DNA of 56,984 nucleotides from positions 1 to 56,984 of IMG/VR virus record IMGVR_UViG_3300037692_000675; one strand, written 5' to 3'. Source of the DNA: a virus (Duplodnaviria > Caudoviricetes). The notes below the pieces were generated by a model, which saw only the letters and a list, made by a program, of their open reading frames with translations, had not been told where the DNA came from and searched no databases. Made by a program: the position numbers and the translations under genes. Of the stretch, positions 1 to 20,092 are shown in pieces. Each line of letters opens with the position of its first letter. The first letter of the stretch is position 1.

Positions 1-291
1 TCATCCTTCCGCCTTCAGCCGATACACCTCCGCCTCCAGCGCCTCGCGCCCCAGCTCCCCCAGCCCGTTCTGCTTCATCTTCTCGCGCACGAACCGCCGC
101 TTGGCCTCGCCCTTGCCGGGCCCGTAGAGCTGCTCGGCCGCCTGCACCAGGGCCTCCAGTACCTTGCGCACCCGCTCATCCTTCATCTGCTTGGCGTACT
201 CGCGCACGAACGCGATGGCCGCCACCAGCAGCGCCGCGCCCAGCCCCGGCACGACCACCTGCACCAGCCACTCCGTGACGATCTCAACCAC
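1..291 (-). CDS. LL-H-type phage holin-like protein
   Basis: GTG start at 291; N-terminal TM segment then LVQAAEQLYGPGKGEAKRRFV...LEAEV, the pattern of LL-H family holins; homologous to 20783..21184. Confidence 0.6.
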   Translation of the reverse strand: MVEIVTEWLVQVVVPGLGAALLVAAIAFVREYAKQMKDERVRKVLEALVQAAEQLYGPGKGEAKRRFVREKMKQNGLGELGREALEAEVYRLKAEG

Positions 292-646
292 TTGCCTCGG
301 CCTCCTCTTCCTTCGAGCCCTCGCTCTTGGCCAACTCCGCCGGGAGACACAGCCCGCGCACCTGCGCCGGCAGCTCTCCCAGCCGGTACACCACATACAG
401 CATCAGCGCGCACACCATCAGGTGCGCCAGCCACGCCACGCCGGCGGGCCGCCCGAGCCGCAGCCACAACTGCCAGCCCTGGCCGATACCGTCCACGACC
501 AGCGCCGCCAGCGTCAGCTCGCACACCCCGCCCAGCCCCAGCCGCCGCAACCGCAACCACACACTCAGGCACAGCGCCAGCAGCAGCACCTCGGCCGCCG
601 CCGGCACCAGCACTGTCAGCACCTCCCGGCCCATCTCGCTCACCAT
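284..646 (-). CDS. small multi-pass membrane protein
   Basis: three hydrophobic segments; stop overlaps holin start; start codon uncertain (634/646/670). Confidence 0.45.
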   Translation of the reverse strand: MVSEMGREVLTVLVPAAAEVLLLALCLSVWLRLRRLGLGGVCELTLAALVVDGIGQGWQLWLRLGRPAGVAWLAHLMVCALMLYVVYRLGELPAQVRGLCLPAELAKSEGSKEEEAEASG

Positions 647-725
647 CCCATCGGCCGCCAGACACGACAACGCCTCCGCGCTGTGATCAGCCGGAGGCGC
701 CCATGCTCTCGCCGCTTGTGTCTGG

Positions 726-956
726 CTAGGTCAGAACCGCTTCGTCCTCCCAGTCCTCATCCTCGTCCCAGAAGTCCTCATCCCCCTCCTCCGCCGGTTC
801 CCAGCGAATCCCTTGATCGCCGGGATACGGCTGCCGATGGTCGTGCCGGTTGTAGTAGACGTCGTCAGGCACGCCGTCAGGGAACGTCACGCACTGCCAG
901 TCCCTCTCGACTGGCCGCAGATGCTTGCAGAAGACACACTGTGATGCGAATTTCAT
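726..956 (-). CDS. small Cys/His protein, putative immunity protein (paralog 2)
   Basis: CxxCxH...CxxFPDGVP...HDHRQPYPGDQGIRWEP with acidic tail; tandem paralog of 963..1202. Confidence 0.6.
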   Translation of the reverse strand: MKFASQCVFCKHLRPVERDWQCVTFPDGVPDDVYYNRHDHRQPYPGDQGIRWEPAEEGDEDFWDEDEDWEDEAVLT

Positions 957-962
957 GGCGCA

Positions 963-1202
963 TCATCCCGCGGTCACGCCGGATAGGGACTCCTCGTCCT
1001 CATCCTCATCCCAGAAGTCTCGATCCTCCTCCTCCGCCGGCTCCCAACGCAGGCCCTGATCACCCGGATACGCTGTGCGGTGGTCATGGCGGTTCTCCAC
1101 GATATCCCGCGGTATCCCATCTGGGAAGGCTGCACACTTCCAGCCGACCTCGTTGGGGTAGAGCAGGTGCTTACAATGGTCACACTGCGAGTCGAACATC
1201 AT
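963..1202 (-). CDS. small Cys/His protein, putative immunity protein (paralog 1)
   Basis: CxxCxH...CAAFPDGIP...HDHRTAYPGDQGLRWEP; overlaps stop of upstream MuF-like peptidase. Confidence 0.6.
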   Translation of the reverse strand: MMFDSQCDHCKHLLYPNEVGWKCAAFPDGIPRDIVENRHDHRTAYPGDQGLRWEPAEEEDRDFWDEDEDEESLSGVTAG

Positions 1203-2002
1203 AGGACCCCATCCTCTCTCAACATGGCCTCAAGTGATCGGGCTGCGTCAGGCCACTGCCCCGCCCTCGTGTGCCTCGTCGCCGAGAAGGCTTCGGCGAA
1301 GCCCTCTGAGTAGTTGTCCGCACCTCGTCTCCCCAGACCCACCTTGTCCGCCTCGATCCACCACCGACCGTACCTGGGCCCATTCAGCCGATGCCGCAGG
1401 CAATGCCCATACTCGTGTGTGATGACATACTCCGGCGAGTTGCAGCTCGCTGGACTGCGGCCCCTACGTTCCAGCAGTGTCAATCTACGGTTCAGCGCCC
1501 GCAACCCTCTCTCACTCCCGAAGTACCGCGGCGACAGGTTGAGCCGGTGCTCCCCCTCCACCCACTCGGCAAACTCGTTCCGCCCCATCTTGCGAAACGA
1601 TAGCCTGAGCCCGTCCTTCGGCACCCCTGTCGGACACTCCTCCATGAGTCGCTTCAGGTGGGAGTATGCCCTCGTGAAGGTCCCGAAGTCCAGGTCCTCC
1701 GGCACTTCCTCCACGATGATGTCCGGATGGCCATTATCGGCCAGCCAGTCCTTCAGTAGTCTGTCCCGAGCCTCCCTGATCTCCGCCCGCCGCCTGGCTG
1801 CGATCATCACGCATTCCGGGCACGCGGTCGGCATGGGCACGGACACCTCCCAGAGGTCCTCGCCCACCTGCACCACCCTCGTGCCGCACCTGCAGTTGCG
1901 ATGGAACGGAGGCCTTTTCGGCAGCGGATGTACCGCCTTAGCCAGTCTGTCGTTCGCCCCGAACGACCACGCAAGTATCGGATCGCCACCCCGTCCGATC
2001 AT
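1199..2002 (-). CDS. MuF-like motif fused to zincin metallopeptidase (putative polymorphic toxin)
   Basis: PPFHRNCRC (MuF signature), CPEC, then HEYGH...EGFAEAF zincin motif. Confidence 0.6.
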   Translation of the reverse strand: MIGRGGDPILAWSFGANDRLAKAVHPLPKRPPFHRNCRCGTRVVQVGEDLWEVSVPMPTACPECVMIAARRRAEIREARDRLLKDWLADNGHPDIIVEEVPEDLDFGTFTRAYSHLKRLMEECPTGVPKDGLRLSFRKMGRNEFAEWVEGEHRLNLSPRYFGSERGLRALNRRLTLLERRGRSPASCNSPEYVITHEYGHCLRHRLNGPRYGRWWIEADKVGLGRRGADNYSEGFAEAFSATRHTRAGQWPDAARSLEAMLREDGVL

Positions 2003-2109
2003 CCCCTCCTCCTCTCTTCCTCACTTCGCGAACCACATGCAACAAACAGGGCCGCCACCTCTGCGGGTAGCGGCCCCTGCCGTTGCCTTCAACTCACAAC
2101 TCGCAACTC

Positions 2110-2421
2110 TCACCCGTCATCCAGCCGCTCAAACCCCTTATCTATCCCGGTCTTCAGCCGCTTGAGCGTCGCGCCCCCGCACACCGCCCCGATCAGCGCC
2201 GTGCCGAAGCTGTGATCCACCGCATGCGCCGCCACCAGCGACACGATCAGCGTCCCAACGAACCCCAGGTGCAGCGCCCCGCGCCGCATCTGCGGCAGCA
2301 CCAGCGGCTTGCGCTCCAGCACGGTCGTGGCCAGCGCCCCGAGCACCCCGGCCAGCGTGAACCACAGGAAGCTCTTCACTTCCGGGCTCAGCCCACTTAT
2401 CACTCGCGCCCATTCGTCCAT
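2110..2421 (-). CDS. small membrane protein (DUF4257-like)
   Basis: 3 TM segments, GVLGAL..LVLP..LGFVGTLIV pattern; GGGGA upstream. Confidence 0.5.
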   Translation of the reverse strand: MDEWARVISGLSPEVKSFLWFTLAGVLGALATTVLERKPLVLPQMRRGALHLGFVGTLIVSLVAAHAVDHSFGTALIGAVCGGATLKRLKTGIDKGFERLDDG

Positions 2422-2434
2422 CGCTCAGTCCCCA

Positions 2435-2484
2435 TGTGGATTCACAACGACTTGCGAGATTCGCATCCCCTTCGGCAAAGCCGC
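2435..2484 (+). mobile_element. relic left end of a related Mu-like element
   Basis: TGTGGATTCACAACGACTTGCGAGATTCGCATCCCCTTCGGCAAAGCCG aligns with the prophage left end TGTAGATTCGCCAATTCTTTGCGAAATTCTCATTTTATTCAGTAAGCCG and contains TTCGCATC-N5-CGGCAAA (2460..2479). Confidence 0.6.
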
Positions 2485-3785
2485 TCGGCCGCGATCCGCC
2501 GCGCCTGCAGCTCAAGCTCGTGCATCTCCTGCGGCGACCGCAGCGCCGGCCGCTGCTCCATGACGCCGTCCAGCACCACCTCGAGCGCCGCCACATTGCC
2601 CGCCAGCGAGAACTCCTCCCGGATGCGCTTCTGCCCGCCCTTGATCGCCTTCGCCCGGGTCCGCTTGTCCCGCAGCAGCTTCAGCGCCCCGGCGGCCATC
2701 GCGTCCGTGTCGCCCACGTCCACCGCGATCGCCAGGCCGCGCAGCACCTCCGCACACCCGCCCGCGAACGTGCTCACGATCGGCACACCCGCCGCCATCG
2801 CCTCCAGGAGCACCATCCCCAGGCCCTCCCAATCGCTCGGGTGCACCATCACGTCCGCGGCCGCGTACGCGAGCACGACCTCGTCATGGGGCAGCATGTA
2901 GTGCCAGGCGTCCACGCCCCACCGCAGCCCGATCTGCTGGCCCAGGCGCACGAAGTACTCGCTCGCCAGGCACGTCCCGACCATGAGCAGTTGCAGGTCC
3001 GGCTGCTGCTCGCGGGCCTTCACGAAGGCCTTCATGGCGTCCTCAGGCCGCTTCTCGGCGCTGAACCGCCCGCAGTACAGCATCACCGGCGCGTCCGGCT
3101 GCAGCCCAAACCGCCGCCGCGCCTCCGCCCGCCGCTCGCTCGCCTGCCCGTACCGCTCATACTTGATCGCGTTGCGGATGACCGTCGCCGGCGCATGGTC
3201 CGGCCGGTGGACCTCGATCTGCCGCAGCGTCGTCTCGCTGACCGCCACAATGGCCTGGCTGGGCATCGCCCACGAGTTCCAGCACCCGTAGCCGTGCCAG
3301 TACTCGACGATCGGGATCCCGTGCATGTGGGTGACCCAGAACGGCCCCCACGCGCACGAGATGATGAAGGCGTCATACTCCCGCTCCATCAGGAACCGCT
3401 GGAAGCCCGCGCACTGCTCGATCGGCGTGAAAGGCCCGGTCCGCTCCTGCGGGGTAAACGCCTCGAAGCCCTCGTTGAGCACGATCAGCTCATCGAACGC
3501 CTCGGCGAGGGGCACGAACGTGTCCAGCGCCTGCCACACGTAGGCATCCACAATGTACTTCTCCCGGCTCAGCCCCTCGGCGATGTCCCGGTTCACGGTC
3601 TCGACGCCCCCGCCGCACAGGTAGCTCCAGAAGATGCCCACACGCTTCCCCCGCCCGCCCCGCTGCCCTCTGATGACGCATGCCGTCGTCGCGTGGGCGC
3701 GCGTGTCCTCACGCGCGCGATTCGTCCGACACACCCGCGCCTCCCTCACCACACCCTTGTCCGTCCGGTGCACCAGCGTTTTCAT
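2442..3785 (-). CDS. GT4 (GT-B) glycosyltransferase, outer copy
   Basis: GGGVET, CGRFSAEKRP, PSDWEGLGMVLLEAMAAGVP motifs; nearly identical to 6813..8147. Confidence 0.9.
   Translation of the reverse strand: MKTLVHRTDKGVVREARVCRTNRAREDTRAHATTACVIRGQRGGRGKRVGIFWSYLCGGGVETVNRDIAEGLSREKYIVDAYVWQALDTFVPLAEAFDELIVLNEGFEAFTPQERTGPFTPIEQCAGFQRFLMEREYDAFIISCAWGPFWVTHMHGIPIVEYWHGYGCWNSWAMPSQAIVAVSETTLRQIEVHRPDHAPATVIRNAIKYERYGQASERRAEARRRFGLQPDAPVMLYCGRFSAEKRPEDAMKAFVKAREQQPDLQLLMVGTCLASEYFVRLGQQIGLRWGVDAWHYMLPHDEVVLAYAAADVMVHPSDWEGLGMVLLEAMAAGVPIVSTFAGGCAEVLRGLAIAVDVGDTDAMAAGALKLLRDKRTRAKAIKGGQKRIREEFSLAGNVAALEVVLDGVMEQRPALRSPQEMHELELQARRIAAERLCRRGCESRKSL
3689..3719 (+). repeat. REP-like hairpin family E (GCGTGGGCGCGCGTGTCCTCACGCGCG and GGGACCGCGGGCRTCYYGCCCGCG variants)
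   Basis: copies at ~3689 (in GT CDS), 4534, 4883; related hairpins at ~18788, 21200, 41617 (in CDS), 51392, 55266. Confidence 0.8.
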
Positions 3786-4513
3786 CGCAACCCCCCTGTC
3801 CGCGTCCACGAATACTCCAGGTCCGCCGTGCCGCCCGTCCAGCCTCCTCCCACCTCATCCGTCCGCAGGGCCATCACCCGGAACCGCGTCCCGTCCGTGC
3901 AGCTCGTGTCCAACAGGAAGATCACCCCCGGCGCCTCCGCGAATCGCGGTGGCTCTGCCCACCGGAACTCCTCCTCATGGTCCACCTCGATCGGCGCCAT
4001 CGCCCCTTCATCCAGCCCGTAGAAACCCTCCAGCACTCCGCTTCCGGACGTCTCGCCGATCTCCAGCCTAAAGCAGTTGCGGTCCACGCCGGGCGCGTTG
4101 TTGTCCACGCCCGTGACCTCGCCCGCCTCATCCAGCGTCATGGACCCCAGATACACCGCGCCGTCGGGCTTCTCTGGCGACAGTTGCGCCATGAACGCCA
4201 CCGCGCCGTCAGGCGCCGAGACGCTCGTGGTGTGTGCGAACACGAAGTTGACCGCATCGGCGATCAGCCCGGTCGCATCCTGGTCCGCGCTCGTCTCACA
4301 CCAGCACCCGGCCACCAACCCTTCGCCGGCCGCCACTTGCCCCTCCAGCGTCAGTTCCCATCCGGCGTGCGCGCCGTCGGCCAGCAGCTTCCGGATCACC
4401 TTGCCGACCACGCGGTCCACGGTCGCGGCCAGCCGGTTATGGTGGTCCGGCTCGATGATCTCATCGGTCACCACTCCGACCGCCAGCCCATAGTTCTCGC
4501 TTATCCCTGCCAT
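3782..4513 (-). CDS. putative tail/baseplate-associated protein of outer element
   Basis: N-half resembles 14109..15113 (NFVF/NYVH, VTGVDNN/VTAVDNS); C-half closely matches 8144..8473 (EGFYGL..FRVMALRTDEVGGGWTG..YSWTRTGGL). Confidence 0.65.
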   Translation of the reverse strand: MAGISENYGLAVGVVTDEIIEPDHHNRLAATVDRVVGKVIRKLLADGAHAGWELTLEGQVAAGEGLVAGCWCETSADQDATGLIADAVNFVFAHTTSVSAPDGAVAFMAQLSPEKPDGAVYLGSMTLDEAGEVTGVDNNAPGVDRNCFRLEIGETSGSGVLEGFYGLDEGAMAPIEVDHEEEFRWAEPPRFAEAPGVIFLLDTSCTDGTRFRVMALRTDEVGGGWTGGTADLEYSWTRTGGLR

Positions 4514-4577
4514 CTAGCCACTCTCCATCATCCGCGTGGGCGCCCGACCCCAAGGGTCGTCCGTGTCCTCACGCGCG

Positions 4578-4650
4578 CCGTTGCCGTTGTCGTTCCCCTC
4601 TCCGGAGCGAAGCGAGGGAGAGGGGTAGGGGTGAGGACGCCGTTCGCCGT
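4578..4650 (+). repeat. REP-like family A (CCGTTG..TTCCCCTCTCCGGAGCGAAGCGAGGGAGAGGGGTAGGGGTGAGGACGCCGTT)
   Basis: near-identical copies at ~4578, 51421, 51914, 55313, 55500, 56583; all in the same orientation. Confidence 0.9.
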
Positions 4651-4660
4651 TCACTCGCCA

Positions 4661-4867
4661 CTAACCACTCACCACTCTGCCGTACCGTCCCCGCCCATAC
4701 AGCCCCCTCCGCAGCACGCCGCCCTCCGCCGTCATCCGCATCAGGAACCGATTGCCGCCGCCCATCGCCGCCGCACCGCTGCGCCCCGCGGCCGTCGTCG
4801 TCGCCCCCCTCAACGCCGGCCGCACCTGCCGATCCACTACCCGCCGCACAATCTGCACAATGTCCAT
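4661..4867 (-). CDS. small hypothetical protein of outer tail cluster
   Basis: MDIVQIVRRVVDRQV; positional counterpart of 15106..15330. Confidence 0.5.
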   Translation of the reverse strand: MDIVQIVRRVVDRQVRPALRGATTTAAGRSGAAAMGGGNRFLMRMTAEGGVLRRGLYGRGRYGRVVSG

Positions 4868-4945
4868 CCTACCCGCTCCCGTCGCGTGGGCGCGCGTGTC
4901 CTCACGCGCGCTACCGTTTACTCGCCCACTCGCCCACTCAACCAC

Positions 4946-5432
4946 TCACTCACTCCCCAGCCACCGCCCCTCCACCGTCGTCACCGCCACCTCCCGCGGC
5001 CGCCGCCGCACCCGGTGCCTTACTGCCTCCACGCGATACAGCTCCCCATCCACGCCCACCGCCTCGCCGCCGTGGATCCGCATCACCTGCCCGACCCGCA
5101 CCTCGGGCAAGAGCGGCGTCACCACCAGCGCATGTTCGGGCCGCCCGCTCAGCTCCTCCAGCCGCTCCATCGCGAGCTGGTTCACCGCCTCGCGGGTCGT
5201 CGCCCCGGCTACGGTCGTCACATCCATCTTTCGCCAGCCCACATAGCGCGCCGACTGCGGGTCATGCAGCGACGCCGCATCGAAACACGTGGACCGCATC
5301 GGCCGCCCCTTGTCATCCACCCCGCACACGACGACGTAGTTCGCGTACTCCTCGTGCGCCAGGCTCCGCCGCGTCCGCCGCACGCCCAGCACCTCCCCCT
5401 CGGCCCCCGGTGTCGGCGCCTCTGTCGCCCGC
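4946..5432 (-). pseudogene. 3' part of tail-type gene interrupted by the prophage
   Basis: joins in frame with 49553..51365 across the TSD (..VRWELYTR|ATEAPT..); homologous to C-terminus of 15388..17634. Confidence 0.9.
5428..5432 (+). repeat. target site duplication, left copy (CCCGC)
   Basis: identical to 49553..49557; fits Mu NY(G/C)RN target consensus. Confidence 0.92.
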
Positions 5433-5499
5433 TGTAGATTCGCCAATTCTTTGCGAAATTCTCATTTTATTCAGTAAGCCGTGCCGCTTTAATTGAGAA
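5433..5499 (+). promoter_or_regulatory. prophage left end with putative transposase-binding sites
   Basis: AT-rich; minus-strand TTCGCAAAGAATTGGCGAAT (5438..5457) and TTCTCAATTAAAGCGGCAC (5481..5499) resemble right-end repeats. Confidence 0.8.
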
Positions 5500-5521
5500 A
5501 AAGAACAGGACCGCAGCCTCG

Positions 5522-6166
5522 TCAGTCCAGTCGCCCATCACCCAATATCTGTCGCTCCACCTGCTTCCACGGCAGCGCGCTCGGATCAAGCCCCAAGTCC
5601 ACCAACAGATTCCCCAATACCTCCCTCGGGTGCGCTTCCAGCTCCTCCAGCGTCAGCCACCGCGCTCCCGGACAGCCCTGCGACGTCCGCACTCGCCGGA
5701 TGATCTCATTGCGCGCCTGATCCTCGTCGGCGGCGAACCCCACGCGCAGCCAGCTCCGCATTGTCGCCTCCAACTCGCGCTCGATGTAGACGATCTCGCA
5801 GCCTGGACACAGCTCCCGCAGCAGTGGCCACAGCATCGTGTACGCCGGCGACTTATCCCCGATGTACAGCTTCCCTGGCGCCAGGAGCACCCGAAGTCCC
5901 TCGAGCGCCGCCCGCGCGATCTCCTGCGGCCGCCAGCGCTGTGCCCAGTACTCGTCATAGCCCCACAGGTGCATCGTCTGCTCATAGACTGCTTCCCCGC
6001 AGTGCCAGATGATCGGCGCCGGCGGACCCTCGCACAGCGACATCAGCTTCGGCGCCACGTTGGCCTCATGGGTGCACAGCGCGACGTCCGGATGCTGAGC
6101 CAGACACCACGCCAGTAGCTTCGTGCCCGTCCGCCCCGCGCCGCTCACGAACAGCCATCGCGTCAT
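5522..6166 (-). CDS. sulfotransferase family protein
   Basis: LFVSGAGRTGTKLL (5'-PSB loop), LAQHPDV, GDKSP, IVYIER...SW. Confidence 0.8.
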   Translation of the reverse strand: MTRWLFVSGAGRTGTKLLAWCLAQHPDVALCTHEANVAPKLMSLCEGPPAPIIWHCGEAVYEQTMHLWGYDEYWAQRWRPQEIARAALEGLRVLLAPGKLYIGDKSPAYTMLWPLLRELCPGCEIVYIERELEATMRSWLRVGFAADEDQARNEIIRRVRTSQGCPGARWLTLEELEAHPREVLGNLLVDLGLDPSALPWKQVERQILGDGRLD

Positions 6167-6816
6167 GGCGTCACCTTCCGCAGGATGGCGTAGCGCCGTC
6201 GCCCGCCCCAGATCGCCGGTGTGATCCGCGTGAGCGCCAGGCCATGCCGCCGCTCGATGTCGGCCCAAATGTCCGCCGGCAGCGGGCAGATCGGCCAGTC
6301 GGCCGCTTGCCCTGGTTGCGGACCGTCCCCAGGCCAGAAGTCCATGCTCAACAGTCCGCCCGCGCACAACCAGCGCCGCGCATGATCCAGGATGATGTCG
6401 AGCTCAGACACCCCCTGATGGATAAAAAAGCTGGTGCCGAAGATGATGTCGAAGCCATTGTCCCAGGCGGCTTCCGCCTGCCAAACCGTGTGCGAAAAGA
6501 CGACATCCTCCCACTCCCGATAGCGTCCGCGCGCCACCTGCACGGCCACGCGGCTATGGTCCAGCCCCCAGTATCGTCCGCCCGCCGCCGCGACGTGGGC
6601 GGCGCAGCGCCCCACTCCGCACCCCAACTCCAACACCTGCGCGTCTTTGACCATGGCGCGAGGCACCAGCAGCTCCGTCTCCCAGAACAGCTCGTCGGAC
6701 TGCTCCTCGGCATCACACCACAACTGCGCCCCCCGCGCGTTCCACAGGTCCACTGTCGCTCTGTCCCAGGCGGCCAACTGCCCCTCCGTCACGTCCTGCC
6801 CAAAGATGTCGATCAT
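6163..6816 (-). CDS. class I SAM-dependent methyltransferase
   Basis: VLELGCGVGR, GLDHS, FDII, LCAGG motifs; ATGA overlaps with both neighbours. Confidence 0.85.
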   Translation of the reverse strand: MIDIFGQDVTEGQLAAWDRATVDLWNARGAQLWCDAEEQSDELFWETELLVPRAMVKDAQVLELGCGVGRCAAHVAAAGGRYWGLDHSRVAVQVARGRYREWEDVVFSHTVWQAEAAWDNGFDIIFGTSFFIHQGVSELDIILDHARRWLCAGGLLSMDFWPGDGPQPGQAADWPICPLPADIWADIERRHGLALTRITPAIWGGRRRYAILRKVTP

Positions 6817-8147
6817 CGCTTCTTTGCCTTCTTCCCGACCTGCGCGGCCGCGATCCGCCGCGCCTGCAGCTCGAGCTCGTGCATCTCCTGGGGTGACCGC
6901 AGCGCCGGCCGCTGCTCCATGACGCCGTCCAGCACCACCTCGAGCGCCGCCACATTGCCCGCCAGCGAGAACTCCTCCCGGATCCGCTTCTGCCCGCCCT
7001 TGATGGCCTTCGCCCGGGCCCGCTTGTCGCGCAGCAGCTTCAGCGCGCCGGCGGCCATCGCGTCCGTGTCGCCCACGTCCACCGCGATCGCCAGGCCGCG
7101 CAGCACCTCCGCGCACCCGCCCGCGAACGTGCTCACGATCGGCACGCCCGCCGCCATGGCCTCCAGGAGCACCATCCCCAATCCCTCCCAGTCGCTCGGG
7201 TGCACCATCACATCTGCGGCCGCGTACGCCAGCACCACCTCATCATGGGGCAGCATGTAGTGCCACGCATCCACGCCCCAGCGCAGCCCGATCTCCTGCC
7301 CCAGCCGCACGAAGTACCCGCTCGCCAGGCACGTCCCGACCATCAGGAGCTGCAGGTCCGGCTGCTGCTCGCGGGCCTTCACGAAGGCCTTCATGGCGTC
7401 CTCAGGCCGCTTCTCGGCGCTGAACCGCCCGCAGTACAGCATCACCGGCGCGTCCGGATGCAACCTGAACCGCCGTCGCGCCTCCGCCCGCCGCTCGCTC
7501 GCCTGGCCGTACCGCTCGTACTTGATCGCGTTGCGGATCACCGTCGCCGGCGCGTGCTCTGGCCGGTGGACCTCGATCTGCCGCAACGTCGTCTCGCTGA
7601 CCGCCACAATGGCCTGGCTGGGCATCGCCCACGAGTTCCAGCACCCGTAGCCGTGCCAGTACTCGACGATCGGGATCCCGTGCATGTGGGTGACCCAGAA
7701 CGGTCCCCACGCGCACGAGATGATGAAGGCGTCATACTCCCGCTCCATCAGGAAGCGCTGGAAGCCCGCGCACTGCTCGATCGCCGTGAACGGCCCGGTC
7801 CGCTCCTGCGGGGTGAAGGCCTCGAACTCCTCGTTGAGCACGATCAGCTCATCGAACGCCTGTGCCAGCGGCAGGAACGTGTCGAGCGCCTGCCACACAT
7901 AGGCGTCCACGATGTACTTCTCCCGGCTCAACCCCTCGGCGATGTCCCGGTTCACGGTCTCCACGCCGCCCCCGCACAGGTAGCTCCAGAAGATGCCCAC
8001 ACGCTTCCCCTGGCCGCCCCGCGCGCCCGGGATGACCAATGGGCCCACGGTGCCTTCCGGCGCCGCAGTGGGCTTCCTGGCGAAATTGATGACCCTGGGC
8101 TGGCTGACGACGCCCTTGCTCGTCCGGTGCACTACGGTCCTGTTCAC
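6813..8147 (-). CDS. GT4 (GT-B) glycosyltransferase, prophage copy
   Basis: EGLGMVLLEAMAAG (EX7E) and GRFSAEK motifs. Confidence 0.9.
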   Translation of the reverse strand: MNRTVVHRTSKGVVSQPRVINFARKPTAAPEGTVGPLVIPGARGGQGKRVGIFWSYLCGGGVETVNRDIAEGLSREKYIVDAYVWQALDTFLPLAQAFDELIVLNEEFEAFTPQERTGPFTAIEQCAGFQRFLMEREYDAFIISCAWGPFWVTHMHGIPIVEYWHGYGCWNSWAMPSQAIVAVSETTLRQIEVHRPEHAPATVIRNAIKYERYGQASERRAEARRRFRLHPDAPVMLYCGRFSAEKRPEDAMKAFVKAREQQPDLQLLMVGTCLASGYFVRLGQEIGLRWGVDAWHYMLPHDEVVLAYAAADVMVHPSDWEGLGMVLLEAMAAGVPIVSTFAGGCAEVLRGLAIAVDVGDTDAMAAGALKLLRDKRARAKAIKGGQKRIREEFSLAGNVAALEVVLDGVMEQRPALRSPQEMHELELQARRIAAAQVGKKAKKR

Positions 8148-8473
8148 TTCAAGCCCCCTGTCCGCGTCCAGCTATAATCCAGGTCCGCGTAGGCGTACCC
8201 CGTCCAGCCGCCGCCGACCTCATCGGTCCGCAGCGCCATCACCCGAAACTGGCTGCCGCCCGTGTAGCTGCAGTCCAGCAGATACGCCACACCGGGCGCC
8301 TCGGCGAACCGGGGCGCCTCCGCCCAGTGGAAGTCCCCGTCCACCAGGTGCTCGACCTCGATCGGCACCATCGCGCCCTCCGGCAGCCCATAGAACCCCT
8401 CCAGCGTGCCCGACCCCTCGATGGTCTCGGTGTTGTCCGCCCGGTCCCAGTGCAGCGTCTCGTGCGCCATCAT
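8144..8473 (-). CDS. small hypothetical protein, probably tail-associated
   Basis: translationally coupled to both neighbours; homologous to C-half of 3782..4513. Confidence 0.7.
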   Translation of the reverse strand: MMAHETLHWDRADNTETIEGSGTLEGFYGLPEGAMVPIEVEHLVDGDFHWAEAPRFAEAPGVAYLLDCSYTGGSQFRVMALRTDEVGGGWTGYAYADLDYSWTRTGGLK

Positions 8474-11400
8474 GACACCCTTGTCCGCGTGATCGTGAAG
8501 GCCCGGTCGGGCCAGCCCGGCCCCTGCTGCTCGCGCCCCGCCTCGGCGATCTCCACCCGGTGGATGGCCGCGCCGGTCGCCGTCTGCACCGCGGCGAAGA
8601 GCTGCTCGGCCCCGTTGGCCTCGGCCGTCACCAGGTCATTGACCCCGACCGCGTCCTCCAGCCCCAGCGACTGCACCCACCCGCCGTTGCCCTGGCGCCA
8701 CAGGTACTGCCCGCCGGTGCCGATGCCTCCCGCCCACAGCCACCCGTCCATGACCGCCAGCCCCCGCAGCTCGTCCCACCCGAAGTTCTGGTCCAGCGCC
8801 CACGCCGTCAGCTTGCGGTACAGCTTGCCACTGTCCCCGCTCCCCGCGTAGATGACCGTCCCATGCGCCGCGAGCCGCCGGATGACCGCCTCGCCCGTCG
8901 CGTGCTGCAGCGCCCAGGCCGTGCCCGAGAGCAGCAGCACGTCGCCGCCGTCCGTCCCGGCCATCAGCCCCTGCCCGATCGCCGCCAGGGCCGTGATGTT
9001 GTCCTCGTGGACCGCGCTCCCCCGCAGCGACCGCTCCGCATACCGATACAGCTTGCTCCCCCCCGCCGCCAGCGTCGCCGCGATCGCCAGGTCGTCTCCG
9101 GCCACCGCCAGCGCCGTGATCGCCGTCACGACGTCCGGGCGCGGGATCAACAGCCCCGCATCCAGCTCCCCGGTGTCGGTGTCAATCGCCTCGATCATCT
9201 CTCCCCACGCCACGTAGCACGTGCCCCCGAGCACCGCCATGTCCACCGGCTCGCTCGTGAGCCAGTCCAGGTCCCGCAGCAGCCCCAGCGCCCCGGTCGC
9301 CAGGTTCAGCCGCCACACCTGCGCCGGCTCGGTGGCCAGGGCGTAGAGTATCCCGTCCGCCACCCCCAGCCGGATCACGTTCGCCGCCGAGATGGCCCAG
9401 CGCGCCGCCGTCTGCCGGGGCGTCTTGCACATCATCCACTCAATGGTCCGCCCCTGGGGCGTCACGCTGTGCGGCCGCCCTGGCCGCTCGACGATCCGCA
9501 TGTCCCCCCAGGTGTGGCTGCCGCCCGGCACGGCGTACCCCACCTGCAGGTTGTACAGCTCGCTGATGTCGTAGGAGGAAAGATCGCGCGGGTAGAGCAC
9601 CTCGCAGCTCTCCATGAAGATGTCGCCGAAGTCGCTGCTATCGGCGTTGATCGGCACGTTGTCGGCGTCGGTCCCGAGCTGCCCCGTCCAGCACACCCGC
9701 ACCTGGTCCGCCTTGGTGTTCACCAGGTTCACGGTGATCGTGTCGTTGCCTTCCTGCAGCGCCACGTCCCACGCCCGCACCATGATCTCGTGCTCACCGT
9801 TGGCCCAGGTCCCGCTGGCCCAGGTAAACGTCTGCTCCACCCCATTGGCCGGCGCGTCGATGGTCTGCTGCAGCATCCCGTCCACGTACAGCCCCATCTT
9901 CCAGATCCCGACCTCGTCGGTCGCCGTCGCCGTGATTTCCACCGCCCCCGCCACGCTCGCCGCGTCCGCCGGCGCCGTGATGACCACCACCGGCGGGTCG
10001 CCGGCCGCGGGTCCGCCCGCGTCGTACACCACCTGGTGGCTGTCGCTGTCCGTCTCGGCCCCGCTGGTCAGCCGCGCCAGCAGCGTGTACTCGGCCTCCG
10101 CCAGCCCCTCGGGCATCGTCAGCGCCTCGGCATAGGTCCCGCCGCCCGCCACGATCGTCCGCGCCGCGCTCAGCAGCGTGTAGCTGTTCCCGCCGCCGAT
10201 CAGCGTGATCTCCAGCGTCCCCGAGCCCGCCGCGAAGGCCCCGTAGTTGATCAGTGCCGTGAACTCCGGCCCCACCGTCGCCCCCTCCGCTGGCAGGTCC
10301 ACCGTCACCGTCGGCGTCGTCGGCGTCCCGCCGCCCCCTCCGCCGCTGCCCCCGCCGCCCCCGACGACCTCATCAATGATGATCCCCATCACCGCCGCCT
10401 CGGCCAGCACCACCCAGGTCCCGCTCACGTACTTGCCCTGCTGGGCCACCAGCGCCACGGCGACCTGCGCGCCCGACCATTGCATCGGCAGGCTCCAAAA
10501 CTCCGCCGCCCCGCCCTCCGCCACCGGCAGCCACTGGTAGGCATAGTCCACCAGCCTGACGAAGTGCTTCACCGCCCCGGTCAGGTGCCCGCTGACGTTC
10601 ACCTCGGGCCACGGCAGATGCACCCCCGTCTGCGGGCTGTCGATCGCGATCCCGTACGCCTCGTCAAAGACCAGGTCCAGCTCCGCCGGGTCCTCCGCCC
10701 CCATCGGCCACGTCGCCCCGTCGATGAAGGTGACGTTCTCCAGCCCCGCCTGCAGCGTGAACTCCTCCAGGTCGGCCATCTGCGCCGTATCCAGCGTCAG
10801 CGCCTTGGTCCCCGTCAGCGTCGGCAGCGTCAGCGACTTCGCCTTATCCCCGAGCAGATCCGCGCTCGGCGGCTTCATCTCAAAGTGCAGCACGCACGGC
10901 GTCGGCGCCCACCACTCATCGACCTCGACCCCCACCGTCACCTGCGTCGTCTCGATGTGGGTGTCCGGCGCCGGGCTGGTGAAGCTCACCGCCGGCACGA
11001 ACATCGTGAAGCCCGCCGTATCGGTCGCCACCACGCTGCTGTCGCTCGCCTTCTGCAGCTCGAGCGTCAGCGCCTTGGCCCCCGCCGTCCCCAGGTTCCC
11101 CAGCCACGTCCCATCCTGCCCCCAGGGCACCTTGCAGGCCAGGGAGGCGTCGATGGTCCCCTCCCCGCCCTGCAGCCCGTACTCGGTGTGCCACACGTAC
11201 CCCTCGCACTTGAGCACGGCATAGTAGCCGCCGGTGATGCTGGGCGCTTCGAACTGGATGTCCAGGCTGGCCGGGCCGTCGCCCGAGACCCCCGTGTCCA
11301 TGTTCTTATAGCCGCCGCCGTCGTCGCCGTACTTCGAGTAGCGGTGCTTCGTCGCGTCATCCCACAACAGCGCCTCGGCCGCATCCGCCCCGATCCGGAT

Positions 11401-12012
11401 CCACGCCGCCTCCGCCGCCAGCGTCGGCGCGGGGATCGTGCCGAAGTCAACGCCCCAAGGATTTGCGGGAAGATCACCGCCGGGATTAACGGCATTGTAC
11501 GTGACGCTGCCCGGCCCCCCACTTTTGGACGAGTGCAAGCACCAGTAGCCGCCCCCGTAGTACAGCCACCGCTCATTCGGACCGCCCTCATCAAGCACGT
11601 AGGCTGGATGAATTCCATCCGGAGAAAGCCCGCTCTCCTCGTACCAGCCCTTGAAGGTGAGGTCACCCGGGTCGGTGCCGACGCCGTCGAGTTGTCCGAC
11701 ATAGAACCTGGCCATGAGCTTTCCTTTTACCTTGACCGGCTTACCCTTGTGAACGGTCGGCGCCGGGTCCAGCGCGCGCAGACCTGTGCTCAGATCAAAT
11801 GGGGCAACCTGCTCGACCCGTCTCTCCTCCGGGGGCGCCGGCGGCGGCACTCTCTGCCACACCGCCCCCCCGATCAGCACCACCGCCGCCAGCACCACCC
11901 ACGGCCAGATCGCTCCCCCCCCGCCGTTCCCTGCCGTCCCGCCGTCCTGCCGTCCCGCCGTCTCATCGTTCGCATCCGCGACGTCCTTGCCATCGTCGCC
12001 CATCGTGCTCAT
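8470..12012 (-). CDS. large multidomain protein (N-terminal TM, Ig-like domains, C-terminal propeller-like repeats), putative adhesin/fibre
   Basis: WPWVVLAAVVLIGGAVW; PPVVVITAPA..ATATDEVG..YVDG..NGEHEIMVRAWD Ig-like repeats; Gly linker. Confidence 0.65.
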   Translation of the reverse strand: MSTMGDDGKDVADANDETAGRQDGGTAGNGGGGAIWPWVVLAAVVLIGGAVWQRVPPPAPPEERRVEQVAPFDLSTGLRALDPAPTVHKGKPVKVKGKLMARFYVGQLDGVGTDPGDLTFKGWYEESGLSPDGIHPAYVLDEGGPNERWLYYGGGYWCLHSSKSGGPGSVTYNAVNPGGDLPANPWGVDFGTIPAPTLAAEAAWIRIGADAAEALLWDDATKHRYSKYGDDGGGYKNMDTGVSGDGPASLDIQFEAPSITGGYYAVLKCEGYVWHTEYGLQGGEGTIDASLACKVPWGQDGTWLGNLGTAGAKALTLELQKASDSSVVATDTAGFTMFVPAVSFTSPAPDTHIETTQVTVGVEVDEWWAPTPCVLHFEMKPPSADLLGDKAKSLTLPTLTGTKALTLDTAQMADLEEFTLQAGLENVTFIDGATWPMGAEDPAELDLVFDEAYGIAIDSPQTGVHLPWPEVNVSGHLTGAVKHFVRLVDYAYQWLPVAEGGAAEFWSLPMQWSGAQVAVALVAQQGKYVSGTWVVLAEAAVMGIIIDEVVGGGGGSGGGGGGTPTTPTVTVDLPAEGATVGPEFTALINYGAFAAGSGTLEITLIGGGNSYTLLSAARTIVAGGGTYAEALTMPEGLAEAEYTLLARLTSGAETDSDSHQVVYDAGGPAAGDPPVVVITAPADAASVAGAVEITATATDEVGIWKMGLYVDGMLQQTIDAPANGVEQTFTWASGTWANGEHEIMVRAWDVALQEGNDTITVNLVNTKADQVRVCWTGQLGTDADNVPINADSSDFGDIFMESCEVLYPRDLSSYDISELYNLQVGYAVPGGSHTWGDMRIVERPGRPHSVTPQGRTIEWMMCKTPRQTAARWAISAANVIRLGVADGILYALATEPAQVWRLNLATGALGLLRDLDWLTSEPVDMAVLGGTCYVAWGEMIEAIDTDTGELDAGLLIPRPDVVTAITALAVAGDDLAIAATLAAGGSKLYRYAERSLRGSAVHEDNITALAAIGQGLMAGTDGGDVLLLSGTAWALQHATGEAVIRRLAAHGTVIYAGSGDSGKLYRKLTAWALDQNFGWDELRGLAVMDGWLWAGGIGTGGQYLWRQGNGGWVQSLGLEDAVGVNDLVTAEANGAEQLFAAVQTATGAAIHRVEIAEAGREQQGPGWPDRAFTITRTRVS

Positions 12013-12211
12013 CCTCTCTCCACAAAATCGAAGAGCCGCCTAACGTCCACGCCCGGCAAGGGAACGAGGTCGCTGTATGGCGGCTCTCCGAAAGCGCAAA
12101 GACCTCGTTTGGGACAGGTCACTGTCCACCATGCCTTGCCGGGCACTCCGAGTTTGCGCTTTCACGAGAGCGATGTCAAGCTGCCGCCGTTGCCGTCTGC
12201 CGCCGCCGTCC

Positions 12212-12259
12212 GCGTCCCGGAGGGACGCTTCTCCCAGTCGGGGGTTTCAACCCCCGACT
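12212..12259 (+). repeat. REP-like family C (GCGYCCCGGAGGGRCGC..GGGGTTTCAACCCCCG)
   Basis: copies at ~12212, 21237, 37934, 38794 (in CDS), 44586 (in CDS), 51517, 55398; same orientation. Confidence 0.9.
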
Positions 12260-12293
12260 GCCTGCCCCGCCCGCCGTTGCCGTCTGCCGTCCC

Positions 12294-12325
12294 CTGACCT
12301 CTGACCTCCGCCCTCTGACCTCTGC
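12294..12325 (+). repeat. 7-mer tandem repeat family (CTCTGAC/CTCTGAN)n
   Basis: similar runs at ~15355, 22687, 25575, 27920, 28950, 44372. Confidence 0.8.
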
Positions 12326-12327
12326 CG

Positions 12328-14019
12328 TTACTCCTCATACCGCCCCGTCGCCAGCACCGTCCCCTCCGGCCAGGCCACCGCCGCCGGCTTGAGCAGCGCC
12401 ACTTCCACCTGGTAGCCCGGCGTCTCCAGCACACATCCGGCCGCGCCGATGGGCAGCACCTGGTAGTCCCGCCAGTCCCGGCTCTCAGTGGTCTCCGGGT
12501 CCACGCGCACCAGCGCCCGCATCTGCGCGACATCCGCCGCCGGCGCCTTCACCACGAGCCGCACTTCGTGAGCCTTCTCGGTGGGCGTGTCCGCCGCCAA
12601 CTCCGGCTCATACAGCCACCGCACTTCCGCCCCGGCCGGCTCGAGGTACTCGTCACTCGGCGTCATCCGCCCGGCCACGATGCACCCATCCCACAGGCCC
12701 AGCCACGGCGCGCTGCCGCTCCCATCGGTGTAGATGACCGTGCCCTCGCCGTCGGTCAGCACCCACTGCGTGCCGTCCCAGATGATGTGGTGCTCGCCGT
12801 CCACCTGGTCCCAGCTCATCCGCCCGTTGACGGTCCCGTCAGCCTCATACTCGCCGTCGCAGCTCGGATCATCGGACCCCCACACCACGAGCCCCTGGGT
12901 GGTGCCGTCGAGCACGGTGGTGAAGCCCCCGCCCTCGGTGCCGTACGGCGCGAGGATCCAGTTGGTGCCATCCCAGATGATCCACCAGGTGCCGTCCTCG
13001 TTGACATAGGCGGTCTCACCGTTGTGGGTGCCGTCGGGGTGATACCAGCCGTTGGCGCCAGGGTCGGGCGCATTCTCGACCTGCAGCCCCACGACCCCAT
13101 CCACCTCCCGCGCATACACCCACACCCCGCCTGGCCCGACCGTGACCTGCAGCAGCACATAGTTCGGGTCAGGGTAGCCTCCCCCGATGATTCCGCGATC
13201 GTGTCCGACCAACCACAGTCGCCCCGCGGTCTCGTGCCCCGCAAGGGGCACATAGGGCGCGTCGCGTCGGGTAGCGAATAGGCCATCGCGCAGACAGGCC
13301 CAGTTGCCCTCCTGCCCGGGTGAAGATCCCTCCTGGCCGAATAGGTGGAATGCCCTGGCCGTCGCCACCGCTCGCACCGGCGCTGCCTCCAGTGCCCCGA
13401 GCGACGTCATGGCATGACCGTCCCAGCGCCCGAAAACTCCCGCCGCCCCATACCAGGCATCACGCCACCAGGCCGCGATCGTCCTTTGCGGCAACAACGA
13501 GGGCGCCCCGCTCGATTGTAGGAAGCTATTGACGAAGCTGGCCTCGTACATCTCTCGCAGCTTCACCGGCACGCTGTCCCAGGGCACGGCCACCAAAGCA
13601 CTGCCCCGACGCGCGTACACCAAAGAGAGCTGGTAGAGATTGCGCACCACATAAGGCTCGATCTCGATGGCCTGGAGGGTCAGCTCGCCGGCGCTGCTCG
13701 CCTCGCCTATGGCGATGACGCCCCACACCCCGTCTGCGTATTGCCAGACCTGCAGCCCGGCCTCCCCCGCCGCCAACGCCCAGCCCGCCGGATGCAGGGC
13801 AAGCACGCCGTCCACCGTCTCCGGCCCGGCGATCTCATCCACCGTGCCGCTGATCAGTGCCAGGTCGCAGCCGTTGAGCCGGCACACTTGCGTCCGGGCG
13901 CTCGTGGCCAGGCGCAGCAGTGGCGTCGCCCCGCTTGCGCGCGCGACCCACACCGTCCCGTCGCTCATCTCGGCGACGTCGGTCAGCTCCTCAGTTATGC
14001 TGCTCAGCTCAACTGCCAT
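12328..14019 (-). CDS. putative tail/virion protein with internal duplicated Trp-rich module
   Basis: NGWYHPDGTHNGETAY..WWIIWDGTNWIL and DGEYEADGTVNGRMSW..IIWDGTQWVL. Confidence 0.6.
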   Translation of the reverse strand: MAVELSSITEELTDVAEMSDGTVWVARASGATPLLRLATSARTQVCRLNGCDLALISGTVDEIAGPETVDGVLALHPAGWALAAGEAGLQVWQYADGVWGVIAIGEASSAGELTLQAIEIEPYVVRNLYQLSLVYARRGSALVAVPWDSVPVKLREMYEASFVNSFLQSSGAPSLLPQRTIAAWWRDAWYGAAGVFGRWDGHAMTSLGALEAAPVRAVATARAFHLFGQEGSSPGQEGNWACLRDGLFATRRDAPYVPLAGHETAGRLWLVGHDRGIIGGGYPDPNYVLLQVTVGPGGVWVYAREVDGVVGLQVENAPDPGANGWYHPDGTHNGETAYVNEDGTWWIIWDGTNWILAPYGTEGGGFTTVLDGTTQGLVVWGSDDPSCDGEYEADGTVNGRMSWDQVDGEHHIIWDGTQWVLTDGEGTVIYTDGSGSAPWLGLWDGCIVAGRMTPSDEYLEPAGAEVRWLYEPELAADTPTEKAHEVRLVVKAPAADVAQMRALVRVDPETTESRDWRDYQVLPIGAAGCVLETPGYQVEVALLKPAAVAWPEGTVLATGRYEE

Positions 14020-14108
14020 CGCTCTCCGCCGTTTGCCGTTCGCCGTTCCCCCCTCCCCTAAGAGACCCGCAGGGTCTCAGGAGGGGTGCCCCAGACCGTC
14101 GGGGTGGG

Positions 14109-15113
14109 CTACTCGTCGCTGCCCGCCCCCACGAAGTCCTTCCCGTCCGCCCCATCCCCGCGCCCGTAATGATTCTCGACGACCGTTGCCGTATTCCGCT
14201 GGGCTGTCGGCAGGTCCGGCAGGTAGTGTGCCCCGGTCATCATCAGGATCGCCTGGTTGGCGACGTCATCAGGCAGCACCATCTGCACGACGGCGGCGCC
14301 GCTGCTCCCGCTGCCGGCGGCCTCGAGCGCGTCGAGCCGCACCGCCAGGGCATCGGTGATCGTCTGCACCCACTGCGGTATCGTCGTCGCATCGGTCGGC
14401 GAGAGCGCCAGCAGCCACCAGTAGACGGCCCCGAACTCCCCGCCGCCTCCGCCGCCGCCGCCCATGTACGCTTCCAGCAGCACCAGCCGGCTGTCCACGC
14501 TCGCCGGCGGCACGGTCGCCAGGTAGTTGGCCCCCAGCGCCGCGGTCAGGAACGCCTCGAGGCTCTGGTCCCCGCCGAAGACCCGCACGAGCGCCGCCCA
14601 CGGGATCCGCCCGGCGATCGCCGGCGCCGCCCGCACCGAGTTATCCACCGCCGTCACGACCCCGCCCGCCACCGTGACTTTGCACACGAGCAGGGCATCG
14701 GGCGCCGGAGTCGCGCTGCCATCAATGTAGTACCCGCAGCCTTGGTCCTCCCGGGCCGTGGCTCCGACCTGCACGTGCACATAGTTGATCCCCTCGGCAA
14801 AGCCCGCGGCCGCGAGGGTCTCCTCGGCGCTGTAGACGGGCACAGCGCCCAAGTCATCTTCGATCACAGCGCCTGGGACCGTAACCTCGCCTTCGACCCA
14901 GCCCATCTCGGAGATGACCAGGTCCGCCCCGACGATGCTCCCGACACCGCCCCGGTAGATCCCGACGCCCAGGGCCCCGAGCATCGCCCCCATGATCCGC
15001 CCGATGGCCTCGGTCTTCACCCCTTCATCATGTGGGGTGCCGGTTTCCCCCTCGGCGGGGTAGCCCAGGCCGAAGATCGGCTCACTGCCGGTGTAATGGG
15101 TATACTCACTCAT
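14109..15113 (-). CDS. putative tail/baseplate-associated protein
   Basis: in tail operon; N-terminal similarity to 3782..4513. Confidence 0.6.
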   Translation of the reverse strand: MSEYTHYTGSEPIFGLGYPAEGETGTPHDEGVKTEAIGRIMGAMLGALGVGIYRGGVGSIVGADLVISEMGWVEGEVTVPGAVIEDDLGAVPVYSAEETLAAAGFAEGINYVHVQVGATAREDQGCGYYIDGSATPAPDALLVCKVTVAGGVVTAVDNSVRAAPAIAGRIPWAALVRVFGGDQSLEAFLTAALGANYLATVPPASVDSRLVLLEAYMGGGGGGGGEFGAVYWWLLALSPTDATTIPQWVQTITDALAVRLDALEAAGSGSSGAAVVQMVLPDDVANQAILMMTGAHYLPDLPTAQRNTATVVENHYGRGDGADGKDFVGAGSDE

Positions 15114-15330
15114 CGCTGAACACATCCCCGCTACTGGTGTCGTCGCTAAACACCGACACGCCCCACATCCACTTTAATCTGCCCTGACCATCCTGGATGC
15201 TCTCCCCACTAACTGCCCCCGCCGCCACGCCGTTCTCCCCTCTCCCCGTGGGAGATGGGCCGGGGGTGAGGGTCTGCCCGACCTCCCGCACCGCCGCGTC
15301 CACGATCTCCTGCTTCCGGTCGCGCCTCAT
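15106..15330 (-). CDS. small hypothetical protein with in-frame REP
   Basis: overlaps next start; TLTPGPSPTGRGENG is encoded by a hairpin repeat. Confidence 0.5.
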   Translation of the reverse strand: MRRDRKQEIVDAAVREVGQTLTPGPSPTGRGENGVAAGAVSGESIQDGQGRLKWMWGVSVFSDDTSSGDVFSDE

Positions 15331-15387
15331 CGCCGTCCACCTTTGCCGTGCCCCTGGCCTCTGACCTCTGACCTCTGAACCCTGCCG

Positions 15388-18641: not shown

Positions 18642-18781
18642 GGTTAACTTTCTGGGTTAAGAATCTGGCGAAAATCCCTGGCTAGCTTTTGCGTTAAGTT
18701 CTGCGTTGCGCATCGCGCAACTATTGGCCCGCGCCGTCGCCGTTGGCCGTCCGGAGGGGCCGGCTATTAGCCGGCCCGCCG

Positions 18782-19123
18782 TTACCGGGACCGCGCACGT
18801 CTCGCCCGCGCCTTCGCCTTCGCCGTGGCCGCCGCCGCCGTCTCCGCCTGCCGCTGCTGCGCCCGCATGTTTTCGGCCTGCCCCAGATAAATCTTCCTGC
18901 GCAGCCGCTGCTCCCCGGCCTGGATGCCGTGCCGATAGCCCGAGCCGTGCGCTTCGCCGGCGGTGTTGCCCAGGCACCGCGGGCAGGGCATCGCCCGCAG
19001 GGTGGCGTAGGGGACGTCCGGCGTCGGGGCTTCGACGACGACCTCCCCGCACATCGGCCACTCACACACGGCGCAGAACACCTGAAAGCTGATCGTCTCA
19101 TTCTCGCCCGTGATCTGCGGCAT
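18782..19123 (-). CDS. small Zn-ribbon protein
   Basis: CAVC...CPRC; TGATG coupling to HAD gene. Confidence 0.55.
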   Translation of the reverse strand: MPQITGENETISFQVFCAVCEWPMCGEVVVEAPTPDVPYATLRAMPCPRCLGNTAGEAHGSGYRHGIQAGEQRLRRKIYLGQAENMRAQQRQAETAAAATAKAKARARRARSR

Positions 19124-19560: not shown

Positions 19561-19727
19561 TCGCTCTCCAGCTCCTCGACGCGCCGCTGCGCCAAATCCC
19601 GCTCGCCCTCGGCGTCCCTGAGCTGCTCCTGCAGCGCCTCGGCATCCTCGCGGATCCCGACCACGAGGTCCTCGATGGCCGCGACCGCATCCTCGACGTC
19701 AGTGACCCGCCCGATGTTGACGTTCAT
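19557..19727 (-). CDS. small coiled-coil protein (56 aa, not in ORF track)
   Basis: MNVNIGRVTDVEDAVAAIEDLV...RRVEELESE; ATGA overlap with HAD gene. Confidence 0.55.
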   Translation of the reverse strand: MNVNIGRVTDVEDAVAAIEDLVVGIREDAEALQEQLRDAEGERDLAQRRVEELESE

Positions 19728-19790
19728 GCCGTCATCCTCGCCGTTATCCTTGACATCCTTTTCATCCTGTTCCCGTCGTTGCCGTTGCCG
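19720..19790 (+). repeat. 9-mer-like CATCCT/ATCCTGTT tandem repeat tract
   Basis: similar tract at ~20720..20780. Confidence 0.65.
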
Positions 19791-19791
19791 T

Positions 19792-20010: not shown

Positions 20011-20092
20011 TGCACTCCGCTACCCCAGTCCCCCCTCCCCTAAATGGCCTGCAGGGACATCGGGGAGGGGGGTTAGGGGGGTGGGCCGCCGT

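Follow-up and report, generated by a model that had tools for sequence, protein, structure and literature searches.

A probable solo end of a lost Mu-like phage beside a tail-domain and glycosyltransferase cassette in a phage-derived element of Armatimonadota

The viral contig IMGVR_UViG_3300037692_000675 raises the question of how a sequence resembling the left end of a Mu-like transposable prophage came to lie 3 kb outside the intact prophage carried by the same contig. The whole stretch analysed, 56,984 bases and hereafter called the window, contains two distinct phage-derived elements, the inner nested within the outer: the intact prophage (5433..49552; 44,120 bases) is inserted in a phage-like element conserved in Armatimonadota, and the end-like sequence, a solo relic of 45 bases or 15 codons (2435..2479, plus strand), adjoins a glycosyltransferase (GT) gene of that outer element. 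At a probability of roughly 0.6, we consider the relic to be the terminal end of an earlier Mu-like phage that transposed to this position and was then mostly lost, with its end, its GT and a tail-protein domain becoming fused in frame to a resident gene.

The relic and its two junctions

The intact prophage provides the standard by which the relic can be judged. Its first bases are TGTAGATTC, its last bases are ...ATCACA, and it is flanked by a 5-base direct repeat, CCCGC (left copy 5428..5432, right copy 49553..49557). The insertion splits a large tail protein of the outer element (about 765 residues) into a C-terminal piece (4946..5432, minus strand) and an N-terminal piece (49558..51365, minus strand), and excision of the prophage together with one CCCGC copy in silico yields a single minus-strand frame of 771 codons, that is, one tail gene. 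The protein is whole elsewhere (60 relatives, most of 755–770 residues and several named as Armatimonadota), and the consensus of these relatives crosses the junction without a gap. Encoded within the prophage are a transposase with a Mu C-terminal domain and an rve core by Pfam (33086..35152), a MuB-like AAA+ ATPase partner (35149..36060), Gam, a large terminase, Mu gp36-like and virion-morphogenesis proteins, a Mu-type portal (47297..49297), a Mu-type protease (30209..31360) and, on the minus strand, a tail tube and a tape-measure-type protein. The right end carries three exact TTCGCA-N7-CGGCAAA sites (49388, 49422 and 49495) and a terminal variant ending at 49552. With a DDE transposase, an AAA+ partner, TG/CA tips, a 5-base duplication and an interrupted gene all present, the element is a Mu-like transposable prophage, and one remote from those described, its transposase being no more than 28% identical to the transposases of transposable phages from Campylobacter, Rhodobacter, Rhodovulum and Shewanella.

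The relic opens with TGTGGATTC (2435..2443), as does the true left end at 5433, continues with TTGCGAGATTCGCA, and closes with an exact TTCGCA-N7-CGGCAAA site reading TTCGCATCCCCTTCGGCAAA (2460..2479, plus strand). Its first part (2435..2459, plus strand) is a look-alike of a terminal site, with a TGT tip and TGCGAG at positions 19–24. An earlier sequence-only reading of the window had noticed the TGT start, a CGGCAAA-type site and 24 of 33 identities to the true left end; both features are there, the recount agrees (with one 1-base gap), and over all 45 bases the two sequences are identical at 30 positions, again with one 1-base gap. The layout is also common to both, a terminal site followed by an inverted site, the latter being degenerate in the true left end (TTCTCA-N7-CAGTAAG) and perfect in the relic.

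Several comparisons bear on whether such a likeness could arise by chance. The motif TGTRGATTC occurs only twice in the whole window, at 2435 and at the true end, where 0.28 copies are expected (at least two were seen in 2 of 100 shuffles). Exact TTCGCA-N7-CGGCAAA sites number four, namely the three of the prophage right end and that of the relic, and a scan allowing up to two mismatches gave five matches against 1.19 expected, a count reached in none of 100 shuffles. Against 22,774 tiles taken from the window, the best non-self scores of the relic were those with the true left end (13–14) and the right-end terminal site (13), on a background with a mean of 2.5, a standard deviation of 1.7 and a 99.9th percentile of 11. 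No exact site was found in 494,464 bases of 44 related loci, and 151 Armatimonadota genomes contained 91, none of them in the vicinity of another (a reversed control gave ~42); taking our own estimate of the summed size of these genomes, this is a background of ~1 per 7 Mb, or ~0.008 expected per window. The background of the exact site is thus low. With the site so rare and the best tile matches being the two prophage termini, the likeness of the relic to the prophage ends is real and specific, and lies far above chance.

The left junction is equally informative. The 13 bases at 2422..2434 (minus strand; reverse complement TGGGGACTGAGCG), just upstream of the start of the gene at 2110..2421, match a TGGGGA..CTGAG.. 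motif that precedes the same gene in cargo-free relatives; they are native to the outer element and stand flush with the TGT tip at 2435. Resumption of native sequence exactly at the tip is the junction that strand transfer makes, and one that illegitimate recombination would produce only by luck. Relatives without the GT also lack the relic. No partner for the end at 2435 was found in the outer parts of the window, including 49553..56984, either as a site with up to two mismatches or as an end-like CA followed by CCCCA, so that the matching right end which the sequence-only reading had proposed to look for is absent from the window. An element terminus is therefore joined directly to recipient-native sequence while the body of the element is gone, and the relic fits the definition of a solo-end scar rather than that of a working end.

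On its other side the relic runs into the outer GT (2442..3785, minus strand), a GT4-family enzyme (Pfam PF00534, E 2e-31) whose last 13 codons and stop are made of relic sequence. Alignment with the GT4 gene of the prophage (6813..8147, minus strand) begins at 2479/2480, the exact edge of the 20-base site. As the sequence-only reading had held, the match ends at the relic: blocks to the left of 2477 agree at only 14/50 and 24/50 bases, while blocks across 2477..3676 agree at 44–50 of 50, giving a core that is 94% identical between the copies (1125/1200 bases). Beyond 3676 identity drops to 15/50 in a hypervariable N-terminal linker and then settles at 69% (243/350) to about 4060, a stretch in which the GT gene begins and the last 85 residues of the neighbouring tail protein, o243, are encoded. 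The outer GT lacks the family-typical C-terminus common to the inner GT and to another member, P0002 (84% identical), reading relic sequence instead from 2479/2480 onward. Alleles of this GT are in general mosaic, and in its first 30 residues the outer GT resembles P0010, a protein only 63% identical overall.

The tail protein o243 (3782..4513, minus strand; 243 residues) is itself a hybrid. Residues 1–150 belong to the outer family, being 47–67% identical (70–100 of about 150 residues) to all 28 relatives examined, whereas residues ~160–243 (3782..about 4040) share only 12–22 of 71–73 residues with 27 of those 28. This foreign-type part agrees instead at 62/84 positions with a 109-residue protein of the prophage (8144..8473, minus strand), which is a stand-alone version of the same domain, at 59/84 with L007, the closest relative of the outer element, and at 46/82 with a stand-alone 104-residue protein that precedes a GT4 gene at metagenome locus L046. 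The two domain families have in common a GSG motif where the hybrid switches and also resemble each other in a C-terminal motif, which offers a plausible crossover spot.

Domain type and enzyme type vary together. A GT9-family enzyme is the first gene after o243 in 11 of 11 loci examined (of 13 proteins scanned from this slot, 11 were GT9 and the other two were later genes without a family), and a GT4 enzyme follows the foreign domain in the window, L007, L046, L047 and L050. The native domain is thus accompanied by GT9 or by no GT, and the foreign domain by GT4. Since domain type tracks GT type, domain and enzyme are, judged from these gene neighbourhoods, a cassette that travels together. 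The same co-variation suggests that the enzyme may act on, or work with, the adjoining tail domain, possibly by glycosylating the tail protein. The loci in which it can be followed are 2442..4513 and 6813..8473 in the window, together with L007, L014, L017, L029–L032, L034, L040–L042, L045–L047 and L050, and the domain and GT genes often overlap by ATGA.

Finally, the order and orientation of end, GT and domain in the block from 2435 to about 4040 are the same as in the left terminal region of the prophage. A sulfotransferase-like gene (5522..6166) and a methyltransferase gene (6163..6816) lie between the end and the GT in the prophage and are absent from the outer block.

The recipient element and the layout of the intact prophage

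Whether position 2435 is an edge of the outer element or lies within it was addressed by synteny. An alignment of the split tail protein, scanned against species-representative genomes, returned 39 loci, nearly all of them from Armatimonadota, in which tblastn placed a long tape-measure-like protein first, then a 134-residue protein, the large tail protein and o243, and, beyond a slot of variable content, a small membrane protein (o103TM) and lastly a protein resembling holins. Neither the tape-measure-like nor the large tail protein has a family match, and both are so called on the grounds of size and position. In the window, o103TM (2110..2421, minus strand), the gene that comes next after o243 in the relatives, and the holin-like gene (1..396) stand to the left of 2435 in just this order. 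Both o243 and o103TM were matched in 22 of the 39 loci, 68–585 bases apart in 13 and 1.08–3.12 kb apart in nine. No match to the inner-type transposase, MuB-like ATPase or portal was found within 10 kb in the 39 loci, and none to the inner transposase in five whole genomes; Pfam Mu-transpos_C likewise gave no match in five genomes, a weak negative since control genomes were equally silent. Synteny across 2435, the lack of transposase and portal, and the lack of a partner end together place 2435 inside the outer element and not at its edge.

One relative (L103 with L037), followed 20 kb further, shows an element of ~22 kb that sits between housekeeping genes, those for EF-Ts, UMP kinase and UppS lying upstream and those for YidC and an M20 peptidase downstream; no Mu transposase was seen there. 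It spans two unnamed genes, an HK97-type capsid gene, tail genes and an amidase. The outer cluster is accordingly a phage-like head, tail and lysis element conserved in Armatimonadota, and it is not Mu-like. Its tail protein had no match among 50,697 phage records. The idea that it might specify a tail-only particle (a tailocin) was dropped in view of the capsid gene upstream in the ~22-kb relative. Across the loci inspected with Pfam (L103/L037, L020, L023 and L033), the families named were limited to capsid, tube, Ig and lectin-like domains and amidase, and no terminase, integrase or replication gene was named. Instead of a full prophage, the outer element may be a phage derivative that has become domesticated.

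Other parts of the outer element also vary. Three genes at 726..2002, between the membrane-protein gene and a 128-residue gene, have no counterpart in the 39 related loci and constitute a second cargo slot; they encode a 267-residue protein with an HEYGH motif and two paralogous small phrog_33375 proteins. The spacer at 4514..4945, between o243 and the split tail gene, contains hairpin-type repeats and a listed frame of 94 codons that lacks relatives and is unlikely to be a gene. Hairpin repeats rich in G+C, falling into families, populate the intergenic gaps of both elements, and one pair (4577..4662 and 51913..51998) is 99% identical over 86 bases.

The layout of the intact prophage is unusual. 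Its repressor (32316..32960, minus strand) and its transposase (from 33086, plus strand) are central, and two arms run outward from them, the right arm through terminase, gp36-like protein and portal to the right end, and the left arm through protease, tube, tape-measure, fibre, GT, methyltransferase and sulfotransferase to the left end. Relative to the gene order of Mu, the early-to-portal block looks inverted. A transposase-site motif with one mismatch (22642..22661, minus strand) lies ~17 kb from the left end, in the gap before the gene at 22005..22643, and may serve for binding inside the element or reflect a past rearrangement. In addition, a 114-base unit is repeated three times in tandem (29433..29711) inside the gene at 28991..30115, between the protease and the likely capsid gene.

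A proposed insertion and loss, and the rival readings

The history that best accommodates these observations would begin with a Mu-like phage related, and not identical, to the intact prophage. This phage would have inserted just upstream of the gene at 2110..2421, with its fibre-side end facing that gene and its body extending towards the tail genes, and the relic would be the terminal 45 bases of that end. The body would then have been lost through recombination or deletion between the end-proximal cassette (the 109-residue domain with GT4) and the resident o243 or a resident GT, leaving a remnant of end, GT4 and domain that would now be joined in frame to the N-terminal part of o243 and work within the outer-element operon. 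The methyltransferase and sulfotransferase genes would either have been absent from the donor, whose end then stood beside the GT, or have been removed by a second deletion of ~1.3 kb that took 10 codons from the GT. The intact prophage would be a later arrival, brought 3 kb away by ordinary transposition. The suggestion of the sequence-only reading that an earlier insertion left a scar of end and GT thus fits best, with the scar now extended to the C-terminal domain of o243. It is conceivable that the relic has been kept because it encodes the GT C-terminus, the GT stop and the spacing to the next gene.

A number of observations weigh against this history. The TGCGAG of the relic stands one base closer to its tip than the TGCGAA of both true ends (positions 20–25). 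The bases CCCCA to the left of the relic match the Mu target consensus CYSRG (PMC7350765) in only three of five places; the consensus is that of Mu, and the transposase here is the distant one described above. L007 has the same hybrid o243 and GT4, which suggests that the event is old, and if it predates the L007 split (~30% protein divergence) an exact 13/13 site exceeds the expectation under neutral decay; the L007 contig ends inside the GT, and neither the remaining GT part nor the membrane-protein gene was found in that genome. The GT core is 94% identical to that of the prophage, as against about 67–70% in both flanks, so that a further, recent exchange of GT alleles must be added, a step that is unsurprising in a mosaic GT family, yet unproven.

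The donor is also missing from the collections scanned, and no phage with this end beside a GT has been seen, so that its make-up is something we infer. Among viral contigs, the exact 28-mer of the relic had no match, the double right-end-site pattern had none, a degenerate left-end pattern hit six loci that were all unrelated coding sequence, and the GT, the 267-residue protein and the split tail protein, used as single queries, gave no confirmed relative. The relic-type pattern had no match in genome contigs, and the left-end pattern had five in 401 Armatimonadota genomes, none of them preceded by TGTR. Relatives of the portal in these 401 genomes are only 28–38% identical, too distant for a comparison of ends. 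The region itself is contained in one run (X1), a public sediment metagenome of short contigs, where its pieces are fragmentary and thin over 1137..2556. In a protein collection the same GT is assigned to a contig of 64,584 bases, and P0002 to one of 26 kb.

The strongest competitor, which we nonetheless hold to be unlikely, is that the relic is younger than the cassette, being the footprint of an abortive or imprecisely excised insertion that had nothing to do with the arrival of the GT. A Mu-like end would have been joined near the 3′ end of the GT, everything beyond two transposase-bound sites degraded or deleted, and the break resealed, with ~30–40 target bases replaced by 45 bases of phage end and the cassette acquired separately by ordinary recombination between phages. 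This would agree well with a relic that comprises exactly two predicted binding sites and nothing more, with a GT match that resumes at 2479/2480, with a length of 45 bases that keeps the reading frame, and with the mosaic nature of the GT alleles, as seen in the P0010-like N-terminus. It leaves to coincidence, however, the order and orientation of end, GT and domain that the relic block shares with the left terminal region of the intact prophage.

Very improbable is that the resemblance arose by chance, or that the stretch is native to the outer element, as a regulatory or terminator-like sequence, and never had a transposon origin. The relic does contain a short inverted repeat (TGCGA..TCGCA) and occupies an intergenic position, where regulatory sites are common; against this stand the scarcity of the exact site, with ~0.008 expected per window and none in 494 kb of related loci, a tip 9-mer held in common only with the true end, and best window matches that are the two prophage termini. 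Hardly credible, in turn, is the proposal of the sequence-only reading that the outer cluster is a second, older Mu-like prophage with its left end at 2435 and 1..2434 as flank, since the end likeness and a tail genes–GT–end order repeating that of the prophage are outweighed by genes that are neighbours across 2435 in relatives (both in 22 of 39 loci), by the housekeeping genes that flank the ~22-kb relative at either end, by the missing transposase (39 loci and five genomes), MuB-like ATPase and portal (39 loci), and by the absence of a partner end, with or without CCCCA, in 49553..56984.

A solo end might still be of use. The relic keeps a tip and a perfect predicted site for the transposase of the resident prophage, in the same orientation as the true left end, and it could conceivably act as a surrogate left end or as a decoy for cis-immunity, an idea that we regard as a long shot. 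As a surrogate, it would allow the relic and the right end at 49552 to move 2435..49552 as one unit, bringing the GT and tail-domain genes into the phage, and this would be a route by which Mu-like phages acquire end-proximal tail and glycosylation cassettes like the prophage's own; as a decoy, it would draw cis-immunity onto the outer element. Capture of this kind predicts that an old end separates the 109-residue gene from the fibre gene; none is visible at 8400..8480.

The closeness of the two insertions requires no special targeting. The sequence-only reading had considered an insertion 3 kb from a related end unexpected under target immunity. Under cis-immunity in Mu (PMC7350765), however, insertions are lacking only within ~1.5 kb of a resident end, rise to ~5 kb and reach the bulk level at ~7 kb, so that immunity is merely partial at 3 kb, and these figures come from a complete resident phage whose two ends were both loaded. 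Given that range, and given that the relic is a two-site remnant of a different phage, the insertion violates no rule. The duplication CCCGC matches CYSRG (PMC7350765) in four of five places, and ordinary transposition therefore explains the insertion of the intact prophage. Homology- or end-attracted targeting is not supported. The relic and the nearby prophage, being only two events, establish no new targeting rule; the phage-derived region that received both is dispensable and may simply tolerate insertions without attracting them.

Comparison with known systems

The relic shows cleanly, in a natural setting, how a transposable phage leaves its end behind as a precise scar, and the scar borders a cassette of host-range type, a tail-protein domain with its GT, that is now used by an unrelated phage-like element. 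Transposition followed by deletion is thereby pointed to as a route for the passage of tail modules between unrelated phages. For Armatimonadota, a phylum from which, to our knowledge, almost no phages have been described, the window also puts on record a lineage of Mu-like phages and a phage-like element that is conserved.

Among known systems, the attL and attR ends of Mu, with MuA-binding sites L1–L3 and R1–R3, are the nearest counterpart of the ends described here. Like Mu, the intact prophage has TG...CA tips, repeated site motifs, a 5-base duplication, a Mu-type transposase and a MuB-like ATPase, and the relic copies the tip and two sites of such an end; unlike a Mu end, it stands alone at 45 bases, lacks both a partner and a duplication, and has a spacing one base short. 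A second parallel is provided by transposon footprints and solo ends, such as solo long terminal repeats and the remnants of Mu excision, in which a short terminal piece stays at the junction after the body has been lost. The relic is likewise a terminal piece at its original junction with the body gone, whereas, in contrast to such footprints, it also borders a kept and working cassette that is fused in frame to a gene of the host element. Nested and decaying prophages, reportedly referred to as "grounded" (PMC6379469), form a third parallel, for here too a prophage sits inside another phage-derived element amid the remnants of earlier visitors; the differences are that the visitor is a transposable phage in Armatimonadota and that the recipient, a compact element, is conserved in many species. 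The work on Mu cis-immunity takes up the same question, how insertion fares near a Mu end already in place (Walker and Harshey 2020, PMC7350765), although there the resident is a full phage and here it is a relic with two sites from another phage. Scars of this sort, prophages nested in other elements and tail modules of mosaic make-up all belong to known kinds, and the relic is a clear new instance in a little-studied phylum.

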